In this document: positions 23,989-30,715 of the stretch, piece by piece
Position numbering within the stretch: the stretch's first letter is position 1
Layout: the number at the start of each line of letters is the position of its first letter
DNA from: Gammaproteobacteria bacterium
Lineage (GTDB): Bacteria; Pseudomonadota; Gammaproteobacteria; JAJFKG01
Length of the DNA stretch: 64,000 bases
Assembly (NCBI GenBank): GCA_965116795.1
Contig: OZ220716.1
Span: 426,503 to 490,502, forward strand
Direction of reading: 5' to 3'
Notes under the pieces: model-generated
Told to the model about the DNA's origin: nothing
What the model saw: only the letters and a program-made list of their open reading frames with translations
Database searches by the model: none
Translations under genes and position numbers: made by a program

Positions 23989-24615
23989 TCAAGCCAATAA
24001 AGCTTGTAGCAATTCCGCTTCAGCAGCTGATTGACGCGATATGGTCAATCTTTGAGCTTCCACAATGGCGCGTAATTGGGCTACAGCAACATCAAATGTT
24101 TGATTCACCATTAAATAATCAAATTCTGCATAATGTGACATTTCATCAGTCGCCACCTGTAAACGTTGATTAATCACTGTATCGCTATCTTGTTGACGTT
24201 GTTGCAGACGAGTCGCCAATGCATCACGCGATGGCGGCAAAATGAAAATGCCAACGGCACTTGGGTGTAATCGACGCACTTGCTGGGCACCTTGCCAATC
24301 AATCTCAACAATAACATCCATACCCGATGCTAGGGTATCCTTCACCCATTTATGCAATGTGCCATAGTAATAATGTTGATTAAATACATTAGCATATTCT
24401 AAAAACTCACCACGTTCGATCATTTGTAAGAACGTTGCTTCATCGACAAAATGATAATTAACCCCATCTTTTTCTTGTGATCGCTGTGGACGAGTTGTAT
24501 ATGACACTGACACTGTCAACCGTGGCACTTGCTTAACTAATTCAGCCACCAATGTTGTTTTACCTGCACCAGATGGTGCAGCAATAATAAAGAGTGTTCC
24601 CGTTTGTTTTGCCAT
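23989..24615 (-). CDS. gmk: Guanylate kinase
   Basis: [14 protein letters not shown] and EIDWQGA motifs. Confidence 0.97.
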
Positions 24616-24642
24616 CAGTGTAGGTAGCCTTTATGTTGATAA

Positions 24643-25509
24643 CTATGCAATATTTTGCACTTGTTCGCGCATTTGTTCAATCCATACTTTTATATCAACT
24701 GCTGCACGAGTAATCACGGTATCTATTGCTTTGGATGCTAATGTATTTGCTTCACGATTTAATTCTTGCATGAGAAAATCAAGTTTACGGCCCAGTGACC
24801 CACCTTGTTTTAATAAACGTCGTACTTCTTTGACATGTGTTTGCAGGCGATCAATCTCTTCAGCAACATCAGCTTTTTGCGCTAATAATACCATTTCTTG
24901 TTCAAGACGATTTGAATCACAGTCTATTGCCAAATCATTTAGACGCTGGATTAATCTATCACGTATTTTTTGTAAGCATGCTGGTAATTGTGGTATGAGC
25001 TCAGCAATTTTATCTTGTATGTTATCTAAACGGGTTAATACGGCTTCCATCAATGCCTGACCTTCACGGGCACGCATTTCAACCACATCATCTAACGTTT
25101 GCGTTAATCCATCAAAGATGGGTGTTTTTAATGAAGTAATGTCTAAACTACTTGCCTGCAATACATCAGGCCAGCGTAAAAAATCGGTTGCCTTTAATAC
25201 TGCACTGGCTTGCATACGGGTTTCTATTAAGTGACACGCATTAATTAATTGATCAACTAACGTTGTATTGACAGTTAATGTTTGTTGCAAATTAGCGCCT
25301 GGTGAAAACTGCAACTGACAATCCACTTTACCGCGATGCAAACGAGCACTAATCACTTCACGTATCGATGGCTCCCACTCACGAAAATGTTCTGGCAACC
25401 GTATGTGCATATCTAAATATCGATGGTTAACTGTACGCATTTCCCAAACAACGTGCCCACATTCCTGTTGAAAACTGGCACGGGCAAATGCTGTCATACT
25501 ATAAATCAT
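24643..25509 (-). CDS. yicC: YicC/YloC family endoribonuclease
   Basis: SMTAF, VNHRYL, GRKLDFLMQELNREANT and EQMREQVQN motifs. Confidence 0.95.
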   Translation of the reverse strand: MIYSMTAFARASFQQECGHVVWEMRTVNHRYLDMHIRLPEHFREWEPSIREVISARLHRGKVDCQLQFSPGANLQQTLTVNTTLVDQLINACHLIETRMQASAVLKATDFLRWPDVLQASSLDITSLKTPIFDGLTQTLDDVVEMRAREGQALMEAVLTRLDNIQDKIAELIPQLPACLQKIRDRLIQRLNDLAIDCDSNRLEQEMVLLAQKADVAEEIDRLQTHVKEVRRLLKQGGSLGRKLDFLMQELNREANTLASKAIDTVITRAAVDIKVWIEQMREQVQNIA

Positions 25510-25651
25510 GAAGTAACCTGCTTAATCATATGTGCGTGTGATTATAACGATAACTATATAGCTTGTCTTCCTAAAATTATTGGAATATAGATAAAACTCT
25601 ATAGTAAAAGAATCATGTAGAGATAATTTTGCAATACCTCTTGCATAGGGA

Positions 25652-26530
25652 TCACAAATATTCAGTTGCACGTGTACAGAATGCTAAAAATGATACCCAT
25701 TCTTGAACATCAACTGCAAATGAAGCATGTGCTGTATCATAAAAATGATAGTAATAAGTGTGTTTGCTGTAAATAACGTTTACTTGCTCATTTGACCAAG
25801 CTGGAGGAATCTGATCAATTGCTATTTTCAAGTAGAATGGTCTAGCCTGTGCATCAAGTAGCAAATAGCTTCCTTGTTGATCTGTTAAGTAAAATTCTAC
25901 TATGTTTTTATCAAAACAAAGTGTCTGGAAAAAATCAACAAACGCGATGTCACTTAAGTAAGGCAATTGTGTCTGCAATCGCCGCACAATAGGTAACGAT
26001 GACTGCTGAAAATAATTATAAGCTAGTGTGGTAATCGCTGTTGTTAACTTTATGTAAGTAGTAGGTGATGCATCTTTTATAACATATCCATCAATGACAC
26101 CGTTGCTTAATGCCTGTTTAGCATCGCTTAATTCATTGGGTGTAATTAATAATAATTTTTTGTAGGTTGTTTGCCCGATTTGTTGGCAAAATTCGATTGC
26201 AGAATCAGGCATTATCATTGTATCGATCACGATAACAGGGATTTCCTCAAAGCGATGAGATGATGCTAATTCTGTTAACAATGAGGTCGCCAGCCCATCT
26301 GTTTGTTCTGCTTTATTGTTAACAACATTTTTTTCTAGCCAAGTTTGCTGTCCTACATAAGGCACATAACTGCTTTGTAGAAATTGCATTGCTTGCGTTG
26401 GTTCATCAAAAAGATGATAAAAAAACTGTGGCAGCAATTTATTGCGTAAATTGATCAGATCACGGTACTTTTCACCGATCAATAGTACTGTTCCAGCAAC
26501 ATAACATGTTGGCAGCACATAATTTGTCAT
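25652..26530 (-). CDS. LqsR-like atypical response regulator (orphan)
   Basis: PTCY N-terminus, RFEEI.VIVID..IMP and IVEFYL.D..GS.LLLD, as recalled from Legionella LqsR; SD AAGGAG before ATG at 26530. Confidence 0.72.
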   Translation of the reverse strand: MTNYVLPTCYVAGTVLLIGEKYRDLINLRNKLLPQFFYHLFDEPTQAMQFLQSSYVPYVGQQTWLEKNVVNNKAEQTDGLATSLLTELASSHRFEEIPVIVIDTMIMPDSAIEFCQQIGQTTYKKLLLITPNELSDAKQALSNGVIDGYVIKDASPTTYIKLTTAITTLAYNYFQQSSLPIVRRLQTQLPYLSDIAFVDFFQTLCFDKNIVEFYLTDQQGSYLLLDAQARPFYLKIAIDQIPPAWSNEQVNVIYSKHTYYYHFYDTAHASFAVDVQEWVSFLAFCTRATEYL

Positions 26531-26723
26531 GCAGACTCCTTTCCTTGGAAACAAAAGTAACTTAAACAATTCTCATATTGCATAACTCGTGCGCTGGAGG
26601 ATTCTACGAATTTTCATTTTGAATGTCACGTGTTTTTTTAACGAAAAAAATTGGCTTTGACTGTAAAAAAACATGGCAAATATCTTACAAAACACAGTGA
26701 CTTTTACGACTATTTAAGTCAAT

Positions 26724-26818
26724 TAACTTGCGTATAATGGTCACCGTCAAATTGCATAACTCCTTGTATTTTGTGCCAGCGCGTATATGACTCCCCGTTT
26801 TATACGCGCTTTTTTTAT
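26724..26818 (+). ncRNA. Putative sRNA gene, copy 1 (TATAAT, about 70-nt transcript, intrinsic terminator)
   Basis: TATAAT at 26733-26738; 10-bp stem AGCGCGTATA/TATACGCGCT followed by a T-run; 94/95 identical to copy 2. Confidence 0.68.
26778..26816 (+). terminator. Rho-independent terminator, copy 1
   Basis: 10-bp stem, 13-nt loop, T-run. Confidence 0.8.
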
Positions 26819-26928
26819 ATGGTAAGAAAAGGTTTCAGTATTGATCAAATGGGTAGTCATTGCTGCGTACAATACAAAGAGCTCATCACTCACAATAACT
26901 TAAGTCTTTTACTACTGTGCATGCTATG

Positions 26929-27023
26929 TAACTTGCTTATAATGGTCACCGTCAAATTGCATAACTCCTTGTATTTTGTGCCAGCGCGTATATGACTCCC
27001 CGTTTTATACGCGCTTTTTTTAT
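26929..27023 (+). ncRNA. Putative sRNA gene, copy 2 (205-bp offset from copy 1)
   Basis: TATAAT at 26938-26943; 26938-27023 is identical to 26733-26818. Confidence 0.68.
26983..27021 (+). terminator. Rho-independent terminator, copy 2
   Basis: Same hairpin and T-run as copy 1. Confidence 0.8.
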
Positions 27024-27107
27024 TAGACTCATTCATCAACTTTATCTACTCAGCCGACCATTACATTACCAAAAAACGTCAGCGTTGAACTGCAGAATTT
27101 AGATTCA
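27024..27107. repeat. Composite repeat scar (family D internal fragment plus degenerate family A right arm)
   Basis: 27048-27088 matches 23263-23303 at 32/41 positions ungapped; AACTGCAGAATTTAGATT resembles the family A TIR. Confidence 0.55.
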
Positions 27108-27238
27108 AGCAATGTGTATATATTTATTGGTTGGGACTTTGGAAAAGTGGGCGCACACTAATATTGTCAAGCATGCGCCACTATGGAAGATTGTTTAATA
27201 TGAATGAGCAAACTTTGGTGATTGCTCACAGTTGAAAA

Positions 27239-27550
27239 TTAATATTGACGTTCACGACCGCCACTACGACGACCACCGCGACCACCACCGCCGCCACCAG
27301 CATTTTCACGTGCACGGTCAACTTTCAATTTACGGCCTTCGTATTCATAGTCATTAAACTGCTCTAATGCAGCTGTCGCACCTGTTTTATCAACAAATGT
27401 AATAAAGGCATAGCCTTTTGAACGACCTGTTTCGCGATCACTAATCAGCCGAACTTCTTGTACTTCGCCGGCTTTACCAAATAGTGACCTCACATCTTCA
27501 TCAGTCGCAGAGAAAGGTAAATTCCCAACATAGAGTTTTGCAGTTTCCAT
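27239..27550 (-). CDS. Single-RRM RNA-binding protein with Gly/Arg-rich tail
   Basis: RNP2 LYVGNL, RNP1 KGYAFITF, DRETGRS and GGGGGGRGGRR tail. Confidence 0.93.
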   Translation of the reverse strand: METAKLYVGNLPFSATDEDVRSLFGKAGEVQEVRLISDRETGRSKGYAFITFVDKTGATAALEQFNDYEYEGRKLKVDRARENAGGGGGGRGGRRSGGRERQY

Positions 27551-27883
27551 AATAGTCTCCTAGATCAAATTTTATACTGCTGCAAAGTAATGGAATCGGG
27601 AACAACCAAAGCACCTGATCAAACACAACTTGTAGCTCGGGCATGCTAACATAAGAACCAGTACACATCTATTAAGGTAGCTATTAATCTATTAAATAAG
27701 GTATAATTTTGACCAGAAATACGCTCTAAATAATACATGACATCTCATTAATCTACTACAAACCAGCACACCATACTGAATGATTGCTATGCAAATAGCA
27801 TGAGTTACAGTATATTTAGCAGTGTGTTACCTGGCGTTTTCATTAGTAAACCCATCTAGGTTAAATCACAAAACAAAAGGTAT

Positions 27884-27922
27884 TACACTCAAAGCGTTTT
27901 GACTGTAGGCGAGGCGGCAAGC
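27884..27922. repeat. ERIC-like element, left-arm fragment
   Basis: ACTCAAAGCGTTTTGACTGTAGGCGAGGCGGCAAGC is identical to the left arm of 58389-58514. Confidence 0.85.
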
Positions 27923-27950
27923 TTGTGAACAAATCGATGTGGATGGTATA

Positions 27951-28763
27951 ATGACAATTAATACTCTTACCCAAACCGTATCACCTACCCACTCATTTGG
28001 GGCTAATTATCAACCACGTCGCTCAGTACGCCATCATTCATACTACCGCTTCAGAACATACACGGCTAGCGCTGGCAGTAATCAACTGGTCATAGCAGCA
28101 ACACCTTTATTTACCCTGATGATGGTACTGCAATACACTCAGTACGCAGCTAATGCAACACCACTACATCAACAAATAGTACATGAAATAAACGCCTTTG
28201 AAAGTGCAGCACTGGCGCAAGGTTATTCAGATGAATTCGTGATGGTGGCACGCTATGCATTATGTGCAGCTGTTGATGAAACCATGCGCATTACTCAATG
28301 GGGACAACAGCAGCAATGGGATCAATGTAATTTACTGTCTACGTTTCAACAAACGCTCTCTACCAATGATTGTTTCGTTTCCATTTTAGACCAATTACGT
28401 GATGATCCAAAACACTATATCGATATTTTAGAAATCATGTATCTGTGTTTAAGTCTTGGTTTTGAAAGTCGTTACCGTGAGCAACACCACGATAAGATTG
28501 AACAGTTAATCGATGAATTATATCGTCTGATTTGCAGCCAGCGTGGTCGCATTAAAAAGCGTTTATCTGTTTGCAAACATTTCACTAAGCAAGTTATCAA
28601 AAAACCTCGTGGTATTTCACTATGGCGTTCATTGATAACGGGTAGTATGTTAATTGGCATACTATATACAGTGTTTACATACACCACCTTTACGATTACT
28701 CAGCCGCTAACTCACACATTACAACAACTTACTGTGCATACCAAGATTGCACAGAGTAATTAA
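27951..28763 (+). CDS. dotU: DotU/IcmH (TssL family) protein
   Basis: AATPLF, ARYALCAAVDE, W....LL..F and LE..YLCLSLGFE motifs; C-terminal TM. Confidence 0.85.
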   Translation: MTINTLTQTVSPTHSFGANYQPRRSVRHHSYYRFRTYTASAGSNQLVIAATPLFTLMMVLQYTQYAANATPLHQQIVHEINAFESAALAQGYSDEFVMVARYALCAAVDETMRITQWGQQQQWDQCNLLSTFQQTLSTNDCFVSILDQLRDDPKHYIDILEIMYLCLSLGFESRYREQHHDKIEQLIDELYRLICSQRGRIKKRLSVCKHFTKQVIKKPRGISLWRSLITGSMLIGILYTVFTYTTFTITQPLTHTLQQLTVHTKIAQSN

Positions 28764-28765
28764 AC

Positions 28766-30715
28766 ATGGCAAAAAATCAAAAACGCATGTTAATCATGCA
28801 ATCATTAAGTTTTCTATTGTTATGTATAACCATCATGCTAGTCTGGCATGTTGGTGATCAACTGCATATTGCTGGGTATACCCCATTAGCAACATCATTA
28901 AGTCGCACAGTTGTTAACAGTCTATTTATCATTTGTTGGTTATCACTTATTTTAAGAAAAACCAAACAACCCTTTATTTTTTCGTCACGCCAAGCTAAAA
29001 CCAGAGCAATGTTAACATTACTGAATCACCGATTTTATGGTGCCATTCATTTTTTAAAACGCACATCGACAAAATCGAAAACACAAACAAATCATTTATA
29101 TGACTTACCTTGGTATTTAGTTATCGGGCCACCTGGCTCTGGTAAAACAACACTGCTAGCAAAATCAGGTTTATCATTCTCGCTAGCCAAACAACAAAAT
29201 AATATTCAATCAACAGAATTGTGTGACTGGTGGGTAAGTCGTGAAGCTGTGTTTTTAGATACAACTGGACAATTCTGCCCAACAACGAAATATATGCTGC
29301 ATTATAAAATACTGTGGCATCGCTTATTACAACTGATTAAAGAACAAGGCCAGACACGCTTAAATGGTATCATATTAGTGTTAGATTTACCGGGCATCGC
29401 TAAATTACCACACAACAAAAAATTATTGCTATACCATAATATACGTTCAAATTTGGCTGTTGTTAAAAAATGCTTACCAACTGAAATTCCTGTGTATTTG
29501 ATATGTAATCAGTGTGACCGCATTCTCGGTTTCCAGGAATTTTTTGCTGACCTTGGTAAAGAAGAACAGCAGCAAATATGGGGAACAACATTGGCTAACT
29601 CGTATAATATACGACAACGCTCATTATTAACCATTGTAAAAAAAGAATTTTCAGCATTACTTATGCGATTACATGAACGCTTACTATGGCGTTTACATCA
29701 TGAACGCAACCAACAAACAAGGCTATTAATTAAAGACTTTCCCGTACAGTTAGACATGCTCAGCAAACAAATACTATTAGCTATTAAACAGATGGCTAAT
29801 ACTAGCAAACTATTGTGGCTACGCGGCATTTACTTAACTAGCAGCACGCAAACTAACGATATAGAAGATTATGTATTATCTACGGTGCAAAAAAACTTAA
29901 ATTTGCCAGACATAGCTACTCATCGATTACAAACTGTATCTTATCATCAGCCAACTGCACTTTTTTCTAAACATTTTCTACAACAATTATTACAGCAAGA
30001 TCAACACTTAGTATCAAAGAATAATGCTCACTTAATTAAAACATGTGGACGGCATACAACCATTATTTCTGTTAGCATTATTGTATTTTATTGCGCATTT
30101 ACTTGGTCACAACAATTAAATCAATACAATAAACGTATTGTGCAGATTGAAAAAACACTTGCTAATTACCAAGTGCTCACTGCAATTATACAAAAATCTA
30201 CGCCAACTGATGTCAATCACGATACTCAACAGTCTACTCGTCATAGAGTAAGACTTATTCTACCTGCATTGAATGCAGCACAATCAGCTACAGATATGTT
30301 ATCAACGGTCCAATTAACACGGCTTACACGTTGGCTCAGCAACAATCATCAACAACTGTATGACAATGTACAACAACTCTATCAACAGGCACTGGTACAA
30401 TTACTCACACCAGAAATAATGCATATTGTGTATACGAAATTATTGAATACACATGAATATACATCAGCAGATTTTTACAGTGATTTAGAAGTATACTTAA
30501 TGCTAGGCCAACCCAAACACTTAAATTATAGCCTTGTACATGCTTGGCTAAATGCTTATTGGCAACAATTGTTTCCTGATGATGAAACAATCCAACAACA
30601 ATTAAAGCAACATACCTCAAATTGGTTAGCAGGCACATTAGAACCCATCAAATTAGATGATACGTTACTAGCAAAAATACATGAAGAAATAGAAAAGCAA
30701 CAGCAGAATAGTTAA
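28766..30715 (+). CDS. icmF: IcmF/TssM family protein, C-terminally short
   Basis: Two N-terminal TMs; LYDLPWYLVIGPPGSGKTT, CDWW, DTTG, LRGIYLTS and YLMLG motifs; only 649 aa. Confidence 0.85.
   Translation: MAKNQKRMLIMQSLSFLLLCITIMLVWHVGDQLHIAGYTPLATSLSRTVVNSLFIICWLSLILRKTKQPFIFSSRQAKTRAMLTLLNHRFYGAIHFLKRTSTKSKTQTNHLYDLPWYLVIGPPGSGKTTLLAKSGLSFSLAKQQNNIQSTELCDWWVSREAVFLDTTGQFCPTTKYMLHYKILWHRLLQLIKEQGQTRLNGIILVLDLPGIAKLPHNKKLLLYHNIRSNLAVVKKCLPTEIPVYLICNQCDRILGFQEFFADLGKEEQQQIWGTTLANSYNIRQRSLLTIVKKEFSALLMRLHERLLWRLHHERNQQTRLLIKDFPVQLDMLSKQILLAIKQMANTSKLLWLRGIYLTSSTQTNDIEDYVLSTVQKNLNLPDIATHRLQTVSYHQPTALFSKHFLQQLLQQDQHLVSKNNAHLIKTCGRHTTIISVSIIVFYCAFTWSQQLNQYNKRIVQIEKTLANYQVLTAIIQKSTPTDVNHDTQQSTRHRVRLILPALNAAQSATDMLSTVQLTRLTRWLSNNHQQLYDNVQQLYQQALVQLLTPEIMHIVYTKLLNTHEYTSADFYSDLEVYLMLGQPKHLNYSLVHAWLNAYWQQLFPDDETIQQQLKQHTSNWLAGTLEPIKLDDTLLAKIHEEIEKQQQNS

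Follow-up and report, generated by a model that had tools for sequence, protein, structure and literature searches.

A family of probable sibling small RNA genes with an invariant anti-Shine-Dalgarno seed, possibly directed at csrA under GacA-type control

What is encoded by two nearly identical cassettes that stand in tandem between the gene of an LqsR-like response regulator and that of a small RNA-binding protein? The question arises in a window of 64,000 nucleotides (the whole stretch of DNA that was analysed, to which positions without a contig label refer) from a gammaproteobacterium whose genome, here G000, is one 2.45-Mb contig of 41% G+C. As a preliminary description of the window had it, positions 26724-26818 and 26929-27023 are identical at 94 of 95 positions with an offset of 205 bp. 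Because a 179-nt contig (26789-26967) that leads from the tail of copy 1 across the spacer into the head of copy 2 was found in three of four sequencing runs, which came from three studies and one of which is possibly the source sample, and because its depth equals that of the unique flanks, the tandem is real and no assembly artefact. Each cassette has a TATAAT box, a GC stem and a T run, as expected of a promoter-to-terminator unit. The plus strand folds into the two hairpins expected (-22.6 kcal/mol, z -5.88, with 0/200 shuffles equal or better), the terminator hairpin being strong and the 5' hairpin weak. That no known family would be recognised also held: an Rfam cmscan of 24000-30000 at E<=5 gave two weak matches, both away from the element, and nothing over it, whether from the models of Qrr, PrrF, NmsR and LhrC, from those of CsrB, RsmX, RsmY and RsmZ, or from any other Rfam family.

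Table 1. Features of the twin locus, in window coordinates; promoter positions count the first invariant G as +1
Feature	Position	Strand	Remarks
LqsR-like response regulator, 292 aa	25652..26530	-	divergent; PDB 6SY9, E 1.7e-27; syntenic in G001
15/16 seed match	26573..26588	+	complementary site in the leader of the lqsR-like minus-strand mRNA
CTTACA, right half of putative GacA/UvrY-type box, -62..-57, copy 1	26684..26689	+	left half missing (1/6)
Second promoter box, CTTTTACC-like, -45..-38, copy 1	26701..26708	+	upstream conservation
-10 box TATAAT, copy 1	26733..26738	+	without consensus -35; absent from the consensus promoter scan listing
Copy 1, predicted 71-nt RNA	26746..26816	+	start inferred from first invariant base
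Seed of copy 1, invariant 24 nt	26746..26769	+	11/11 copies
Terminator hairpin and U run, copy 1	26778..26816	+	stem covaries, loop variable
CTCACA (5/6), -62..-57, copy 2	26889..26894	+	within spacer
Second promoter box, copy 2	26906..26913	+	upstream conservation
-10 box TATAAT, copy 2	26938..26943	+	11-copy comparison
Copy 2, predicted 71-nt RNA	26951..27021	+	identical to copy 1
Seed of copy 2, invariant 24 nt	26951..26974	+	11-copy comparison
Terminator hairpin and U run, copy 2	26983..27021	+	stem covaries across copies
Single-RRM RNA-binding protein gene	27239..27550	-	convergent on twin; syntenic in G001

The PDB entry matched by the response regulator is labelled 'Response regulator', and we take it to be Legionella LqsR. 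To the right of the twin, along with the RRM gene, lie the type IVB genes icmH/dotU and icmF, and such neighbours suggest a 'Legionellales-like' lineage. The RRM protein is a possible partner of the twin RNA; its tail is rich in glycine and arginine. Elsewhere in the genome two further LqsR-like regulators are encoded, each beside a LuxN-like histidine kinase (G000 C1:72281-74387 and 2145719-2148196), and just after copy 2 the window carries a 46-bp dispersed repeat (27043-27088), which the genome matches at about 17 other places.

The twin had been taken for a lone tandem pair, but five copies of the cassette are present in G000 and six in its congener G001, i.e. 11 copies in the two related species with which the genus was sampled. 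All 11 have the -10 box, which in copy 1 is followed by a gap of 7 nt before the inferred start, and in all 11 the first 24 nt are invariant while the terminator loop is free to vary. Within the terminator, 4 of the 12 stem pairs are changed on both sides among copies; the weak 5' hairpin never varies in the 11 copies and so has no covariation support. The sense strand is devoid of GGA in 11/11 copies, the antisense strand having one or two. These are intergenic siblings in several homologous copies, each with its own promoter and intrinsic terminator, as in the Hfq-dependent trans-acting class of small RNAs, and hfq is present in G000, in G001 and in G002, a genome from the same taxonomic family. 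That the 11 copies are RNA genes can be regarded as highly probable.

Synteny between G000 and G001 is confined to the locus next to the lqsR-like gene, where G001 has a single copy, its own tandem pair being located elsewhere. Since the copies are mostly more similar within a species than between species, the comparison suggests that they expanded separately in each species or were homogenised. One G000 copy lies antisense between tail-terminator and minor-tail genes in a prophage-like cluster (L027, G000 C1:2089000-2096000), surrounded by phage head and tail genes. Beyond the genus, a DNA search of 60 other genomes gave real matches only in G001, and a covariance model run on the same 60 found no copy outside the genus. 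Among 44 LqsR-bearing genomes the best covariance-model hit had an E value of 0.126 and relaxed patterns found no homologue. A relaxed pattern applied to 401 genomes, which misses one of the five copies of G000 itself, gave six single matches outside the genus, a matching terminator being seen in none of them. An 18-mer located 20 loci in the species collection, of which 5 were repeats of known copies and 15 were without the gene; a 21-mer located 2 loci in metagenomes, neither a gene copy; and neither viral contigs nor plasmids gave any match (0 in each). The cassettes probably form an 11-member family of sibling sRNAs, unmatched in Rfam, with a homologue found outside the genus in none of these searches.

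Comparison of the copies also decides which parts of the RNA could face an mRNA. Two anti-Shine-Dalgarno (SD) loops had been proposed; the one with CUCCU stands, as it lies within the seed that is invariant in 11/11 copies, but the GACUCCCC loop varies freely among them and was ruled out as a conserved anti-SD. The seed had further been described as the complement of an SD plus AUG; read contiguously, this complement would leave just 2 nt between SD and AUG. No contiguous match to the seed was found at any start in G000, and nowhere else in that genome does an uninterrupted match to the 25-nt seed complement exceed 12 nt, so that a real start could be paired only with gaps. The spacer between the twins, said to be unrelated, is identical at 43 of 110 positions to the stretch preceding copy 1, and two promoter boxes are kept in register within it. 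What survives of the earlier reading is thus the core, sibling anti-SD sRNAs, with 11 copies in two species, terminator covariation, Hfq and a blank in Rfam on its side, while the second loop, the unrelated spacer and the lone pair have to be given up. That reading had proposed neither a target nor a regulator.

The promoter boxes offer the first clue to the circuit in which the family may work. Upstream identity across species peaks at -65..-56 (0.56) and -45..-33 (0.63), with 0.24-0.34 in the zones around, and the same peaks fall inside the spacer. The first peak contains CTTACA at -62..-57, with 57 of 66 positions matched overall (seven of the 11 copies match perfectly, two at 5/6, and one each at 4/6 and 1/6). 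We spotted this hexamer first and then took it for half of a GacA box. In rsmY the GacA site, TGTAAG-N6-CTTACA, is found at -75 (PMC4950607), a register that puts its right half within one base of the CTTACA of the family; the left half then amounts to a separate check. In one copy, at G000 C1:1054018, TGTAAG stands exactly 6 nt before the right half, both halves together matching at 10/12 (chance ~0.002 by hexamer frequency), and in 10 of the 11 promoters the left half is missing. Lopsided GacA boxes are known from rsmX of P. brassicacearum (PMC7911923) and csrC of E. coli (PMC4682653). Searches with a promoter weight matrix revealed no clear further member of the regulon, and in relatives both the CTTACA-to-TATAAT pattern and a putative Legionella LetA box, a motif not found in print, occurred at about control level. 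Binding to the box is a prediction from these motifs, on which GacA control of the sibling sRNAs seems slightly better than an even bet.

If the promoters belong to the Gac/Csr pathway, the remaining components of that pathway should be considered. An unannotated csrB-like RNA gene is present in both species (G000 C1:~580845-581080, L309; G001 L103:~430-690), where a box search together with a scan for GGA density showed 10 GGA and a terminator in each genome. In Rfam it matches RF00018 in G001 (E 3.2e-5) and RF00166 in G000 (E 0.042), both below the gathering score. The CsrB model found nothing in G002, the rsmX and RsmY models gave nothing over cut-off, and an earlier terminator-based scan for sponges, run without a positive control, had missed the csrB-like gene. 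About 200 bp upstream of it TGTAAG-N2-ATCTCT is kept in both species, so the same half-site is maintained at a Csr-type gene in the genus. As both genomes have the csrB-like gene, the idea that the siblings stand in for a missing CsrA sponge was rejected. Ahead of uvrC and pgsA lies a gacA-like gene, with 59% identity to its counterpart in G001; its product scores 238 bits against a family cut-off of 280. A full-length BarA/GacS was not found in G000, G001 or G002. Hybrid kinases are present, as is a stand-alone protein that matches the C-terminal end of BarA/LetS (G000 C1:2359182-2359556, L305), and possibly a split phosphorelay runs from this BarA-like protein to the gacA-like regulator.

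The second clue came from the predicted targets. The screen was done without preselection: comparing G000 with 1.49 Mb of G001 gave 1299 reciprocal best hits, from which 1211 orthologue pairs with paired starts were kept and 88 dropped; start codons were assigned heuristically and a few ORFs are spurious. csrA had been considered beforehand, its paralogues having been seen (4 in G000, 6 in G001 and 3 in G002, the main csrA being used for ranking). In both species GUCAAA of the RNA is predicted to pair with UUUGAC (csrA codons 3-5), GCAU with AUGC and CUCCU with AGGAG, most of the other invariant bases falling in two short bulges or in the opposing strand of the 5' hairpin. The main csrA took rank 1 of 1211 as a seed duplex, judged by the weaker of its two energies (-20.6/-19.5), rank 1 of the top 150 when opening costs were added, and rank 1 of 1211 on full-length cofolding (-13.5/-15.2), three scorings that share one energy model. 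Its ranks in single genomes were 2 and 7 for the seed and 7 and 6 for cofolding. Shuffling of the 5' 12 nt with the anti-SD left intact never put csrA in first place and never brought it to -19.5 (0/57 and 0/146); some orthologue pair scored equally well in 23 of these 203 shuffles (3/57 and 20/146), and full shuffling of the seed gave an equally good best score in 1/65. Given those 23 equally good shuffles, the rank of csrA is by itself no proof.

The arrangement of the three blocks, a pattern defined from csrA, is found at 1 of 1211 starts in each genome, the same orthologue pair in both. All three blocks occur at both csrA starts of the genus, as against 2 of 31 in genomes that lack the RNA, and when the 33 csrA starts were ranked by seed pairing the two from the genus came third and fourth. 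Two csrA starts from distant genomes (L208 and L214) pair better than those of the genus, and no related RNA was found there. The identity of csrA codons 2-5, which at first hinted at constraint on synonymous sites, turned out to be unexceptional, as it is shown by 18 of 143 comparable orthologues. The csrA leader (G000 C1:1645535-1645579, L304) has four GGA, and three in G001, which suggests that csrA may repress itself at the very site predicted to be covered by the RNA. In G002, where the RNA gene was not found, one gene has a perfect 17-nt complement of the seed across SD and spacer (L023:915-931, G002:C48), which may be chance or a relic. On these models the sibling RNA very probably occludes an SD by base pairing, and the chances that csrA is a main target appear evenly poised; other mRNAs with AGGAG-type sites are probably secondary targets.

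The alternative that fares best is that the siblings are anti-SD sRNAs with a broad regulon, e.g. htpG and rpoE, to which csrA belongs incidentally or as one of many. As an anti-SD the exposed loop is generic, and 92 and 100 of the 1211 starts in the two genomes have AGGAG in front of them; taken genome-wide, the top score reaches a significance of only ~11%; htpG and rpoE rank second and third in the seed-duplex screen; and NmsRA/B of Neisseria act in such a manner (PMC5362039). However, a broad regulon leaves the invariance of the 5' GUCAAA unexplained, cofolding relegates rpoE to rank 1022, shuffled seeds have rpoE as their most frequent top match (43/146), and the promoter box points independently to the Gac/Csr pathway. 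We hold this reading to be rather unlikely, though it deserves serious attention.

The location of the twin invites another reading, that of a Qrr-like loop in which the divergent lqsR-like neighbour is the main target. This is the sole syntenic locus of the family, the leader of the neighbour has the 15/16 complement (-19.5, rank 7 in G000), and in both species the seed can pair with its ribosome-binding site (rank 18 of 1211). But the long leader site is absent from G001, where the rank is 74, and is either a decayed third copy or a species-specific site; with structure included the gene falls to rank 29 of 150 and 171 of 1211, and the two other LqsR paralogues pair weakly (-15.6 and -13.6). 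A main role for this target would seem improbable.

One may also ask whether a plus-strand regulatory RNA is needed at all, or whether the cassettes represent a small mobile element or DNA repeat, a site for a DNA-binding protein or a micro-ORF on the minus strand. The copies are dispersed and mostly non-syntenic, one of them among phage head and tail genes, in a genome rich in hairpin repeats, and on the minus strand an AUG follows AAGGAG in all copies. Yet there are only five to six copies per genome, and inversion is confined to the internal hairpin; no terminal inverted repeats, target-site duplication or high copy number, as in MITE or REP elements, were seen (flanks inspected by eye at the two window copies). 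Conservation tracks the promoter boxes, the seed and the stem pairs and not the whole unit, and the micro-ORF is 12-31 aa long with an SD spacing of 2 nt. A minus-strand CsrA sponge or micro-peptide was rejected; in a comparison with type I antitoxins, the antisense micro-ORF was not conserved in length (12-31 aa) and the neighbours (ORFs of at least 110 aa) differed between copies. An origin of the pattern in such DNA is very improbable. That the RNA acts on Csr otherwise, whether by binding the protein CsrA or through a duplex with the csrB-like RNA, is the slightest prospect of all, for although the promoter box is of the Csr/Rsm type and the seed partly complements the first GGA hairpin in the csrB-like RNA of G000, sense-strand GGA is absent throughout the family, and pairing with the csrB-like RNA was discarded as no better than that of shuffled seeds (110/300 and 95/300), with a net energy near zero.

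We return, then, to csrA mRNA as the target of a GacA-type circuit, a reading based on the promoter box and the top-ranked target, clues that are mutually independent and of which neither is strong alone. Computed are the copy number, the invariant seed, the promoter boxes, the covarying terminator, the lack of GGA and the presence of hfq, gacA-like, csrA and csrB-like genes; the steps that connect them we infer. A phosphorylated regulator would bind the -74..-57 box and activate a promoter without a good -35. Hfq would bind the U-rich linker and the terminator of the RNA, whose loop UAACUCCU would make the first contact with AGGAG, whereupon the weak 5' hairpin would open, letting GCAU pair with AUGC and GUCAAA with UUUGAC and so shutting out the ribosome. 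With a similar box in front of the csrB-like sponge, a single signal might titrate CsrA and at the same time stop its resupply. That sibling trans-acting RNAs of ~71 nt, probably driven by a GacA/LetA-type regulator, block CsrA synthesis via csrA mRNA is a model prediction to which we would give about equal odds either way. In its full form the proposal is more tentative, and possible rather than probable: a second arm of Gac/Csr control, in which a GacA/LetA regulator drives five to six pairing sRNAs against csrA translation in parallel to the CsrB sponge, would place CsrA under a double, feed-forward lock in a lineage that carries Dot/Icm, its copies having spread independently in each species and one of them residing in a prophage region.

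How does such a family compare with known systems? Like the CsrB/C and RsmX/Y/Z sponges it comes as several redundant genes, has a putative GacA/UvrY-type box upstream and is predicted to lower CsrA activity, but it lacks GGA, is predicted to pair with csrA mRNA rather than to bind the protein, and exists beside a separate CsrB-like gene in both genomes. Vibrio Qrr1-5 depend on sigma-54 and LuxO. Qrr1-5 and Listeria LhrC1-5 resemble the family in having four to six siblings, activation by a response regulator (predicted here), an invariant pairing region and one copy beside the gene of a signalling regulator, whereas the family differs in its sigma-70-type -10 box, its lack of an Rfam match, and its seed and predicted target; a role of Qrr in Vibrio is mentioned in PMC6262261. 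Neisseria NmsRA/NmsRB (NgncR_162/163) are likewise tandem intergenic siblings that repress translation, as is predicted here, through a single-stranded anti-SD, but they have two anti-SDs and TCA enzymes as targets, in contrast to one conserved anti-SD and a predicted regulator target (PMC5362039), and no sequence relation was found to the family with its five to six copies. In Pseudoalteromonas fuliginea, sRNA0654 has been predicted in silico as a putative cis-antisense RNA to csrA (PMC11882849) and is thus also an RNA proposed to regulate csrA mRNA; it is antisense, unlike the trans-encoded, multicopy family with its gapped pairing. The family would work like NmsRA/B, Qrr and LhrC and be wired like CsrB/Rsm, but it is a member of none of them.

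In the literature cited, GacA/UvrY/LetA regulators control CsrA via sRNAs that sequester the protein; CsrB/Rsm-type sponges include those of the LetA-RsmXYZ-CsrA system of Legionella (PMC5338858), CbsR12 of Coxiella (bioRxiv 10.1101/679134) and csrB1-4 of Vibrio (PMC6262261). Searches of open PMC and bioRxiv text brought to light no trans-encoded sRNA with demonstrated repression of csrA translation, the nearest case being the predicted antisense sRNA0654, and reports may have been missed; PMC1488887, PMC7366521, PMC10729762 and PMC5207318 yielded nothing on csrA-targeting sRNAs. Should the target proposed here be wrong, there would still be a family of 11 sRNAs, so far undescribed, whose seed and promoter are defined. 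The pairing predicted with csrA is base-exact. In Legionella the cascade governs the change from replication to transmission (PMC5338858); if our reading is true, the same switch would also act by Hfq-type pairing on csrA mRNA, and the Hfq and Csr networks would be joined at the top of this cascade.
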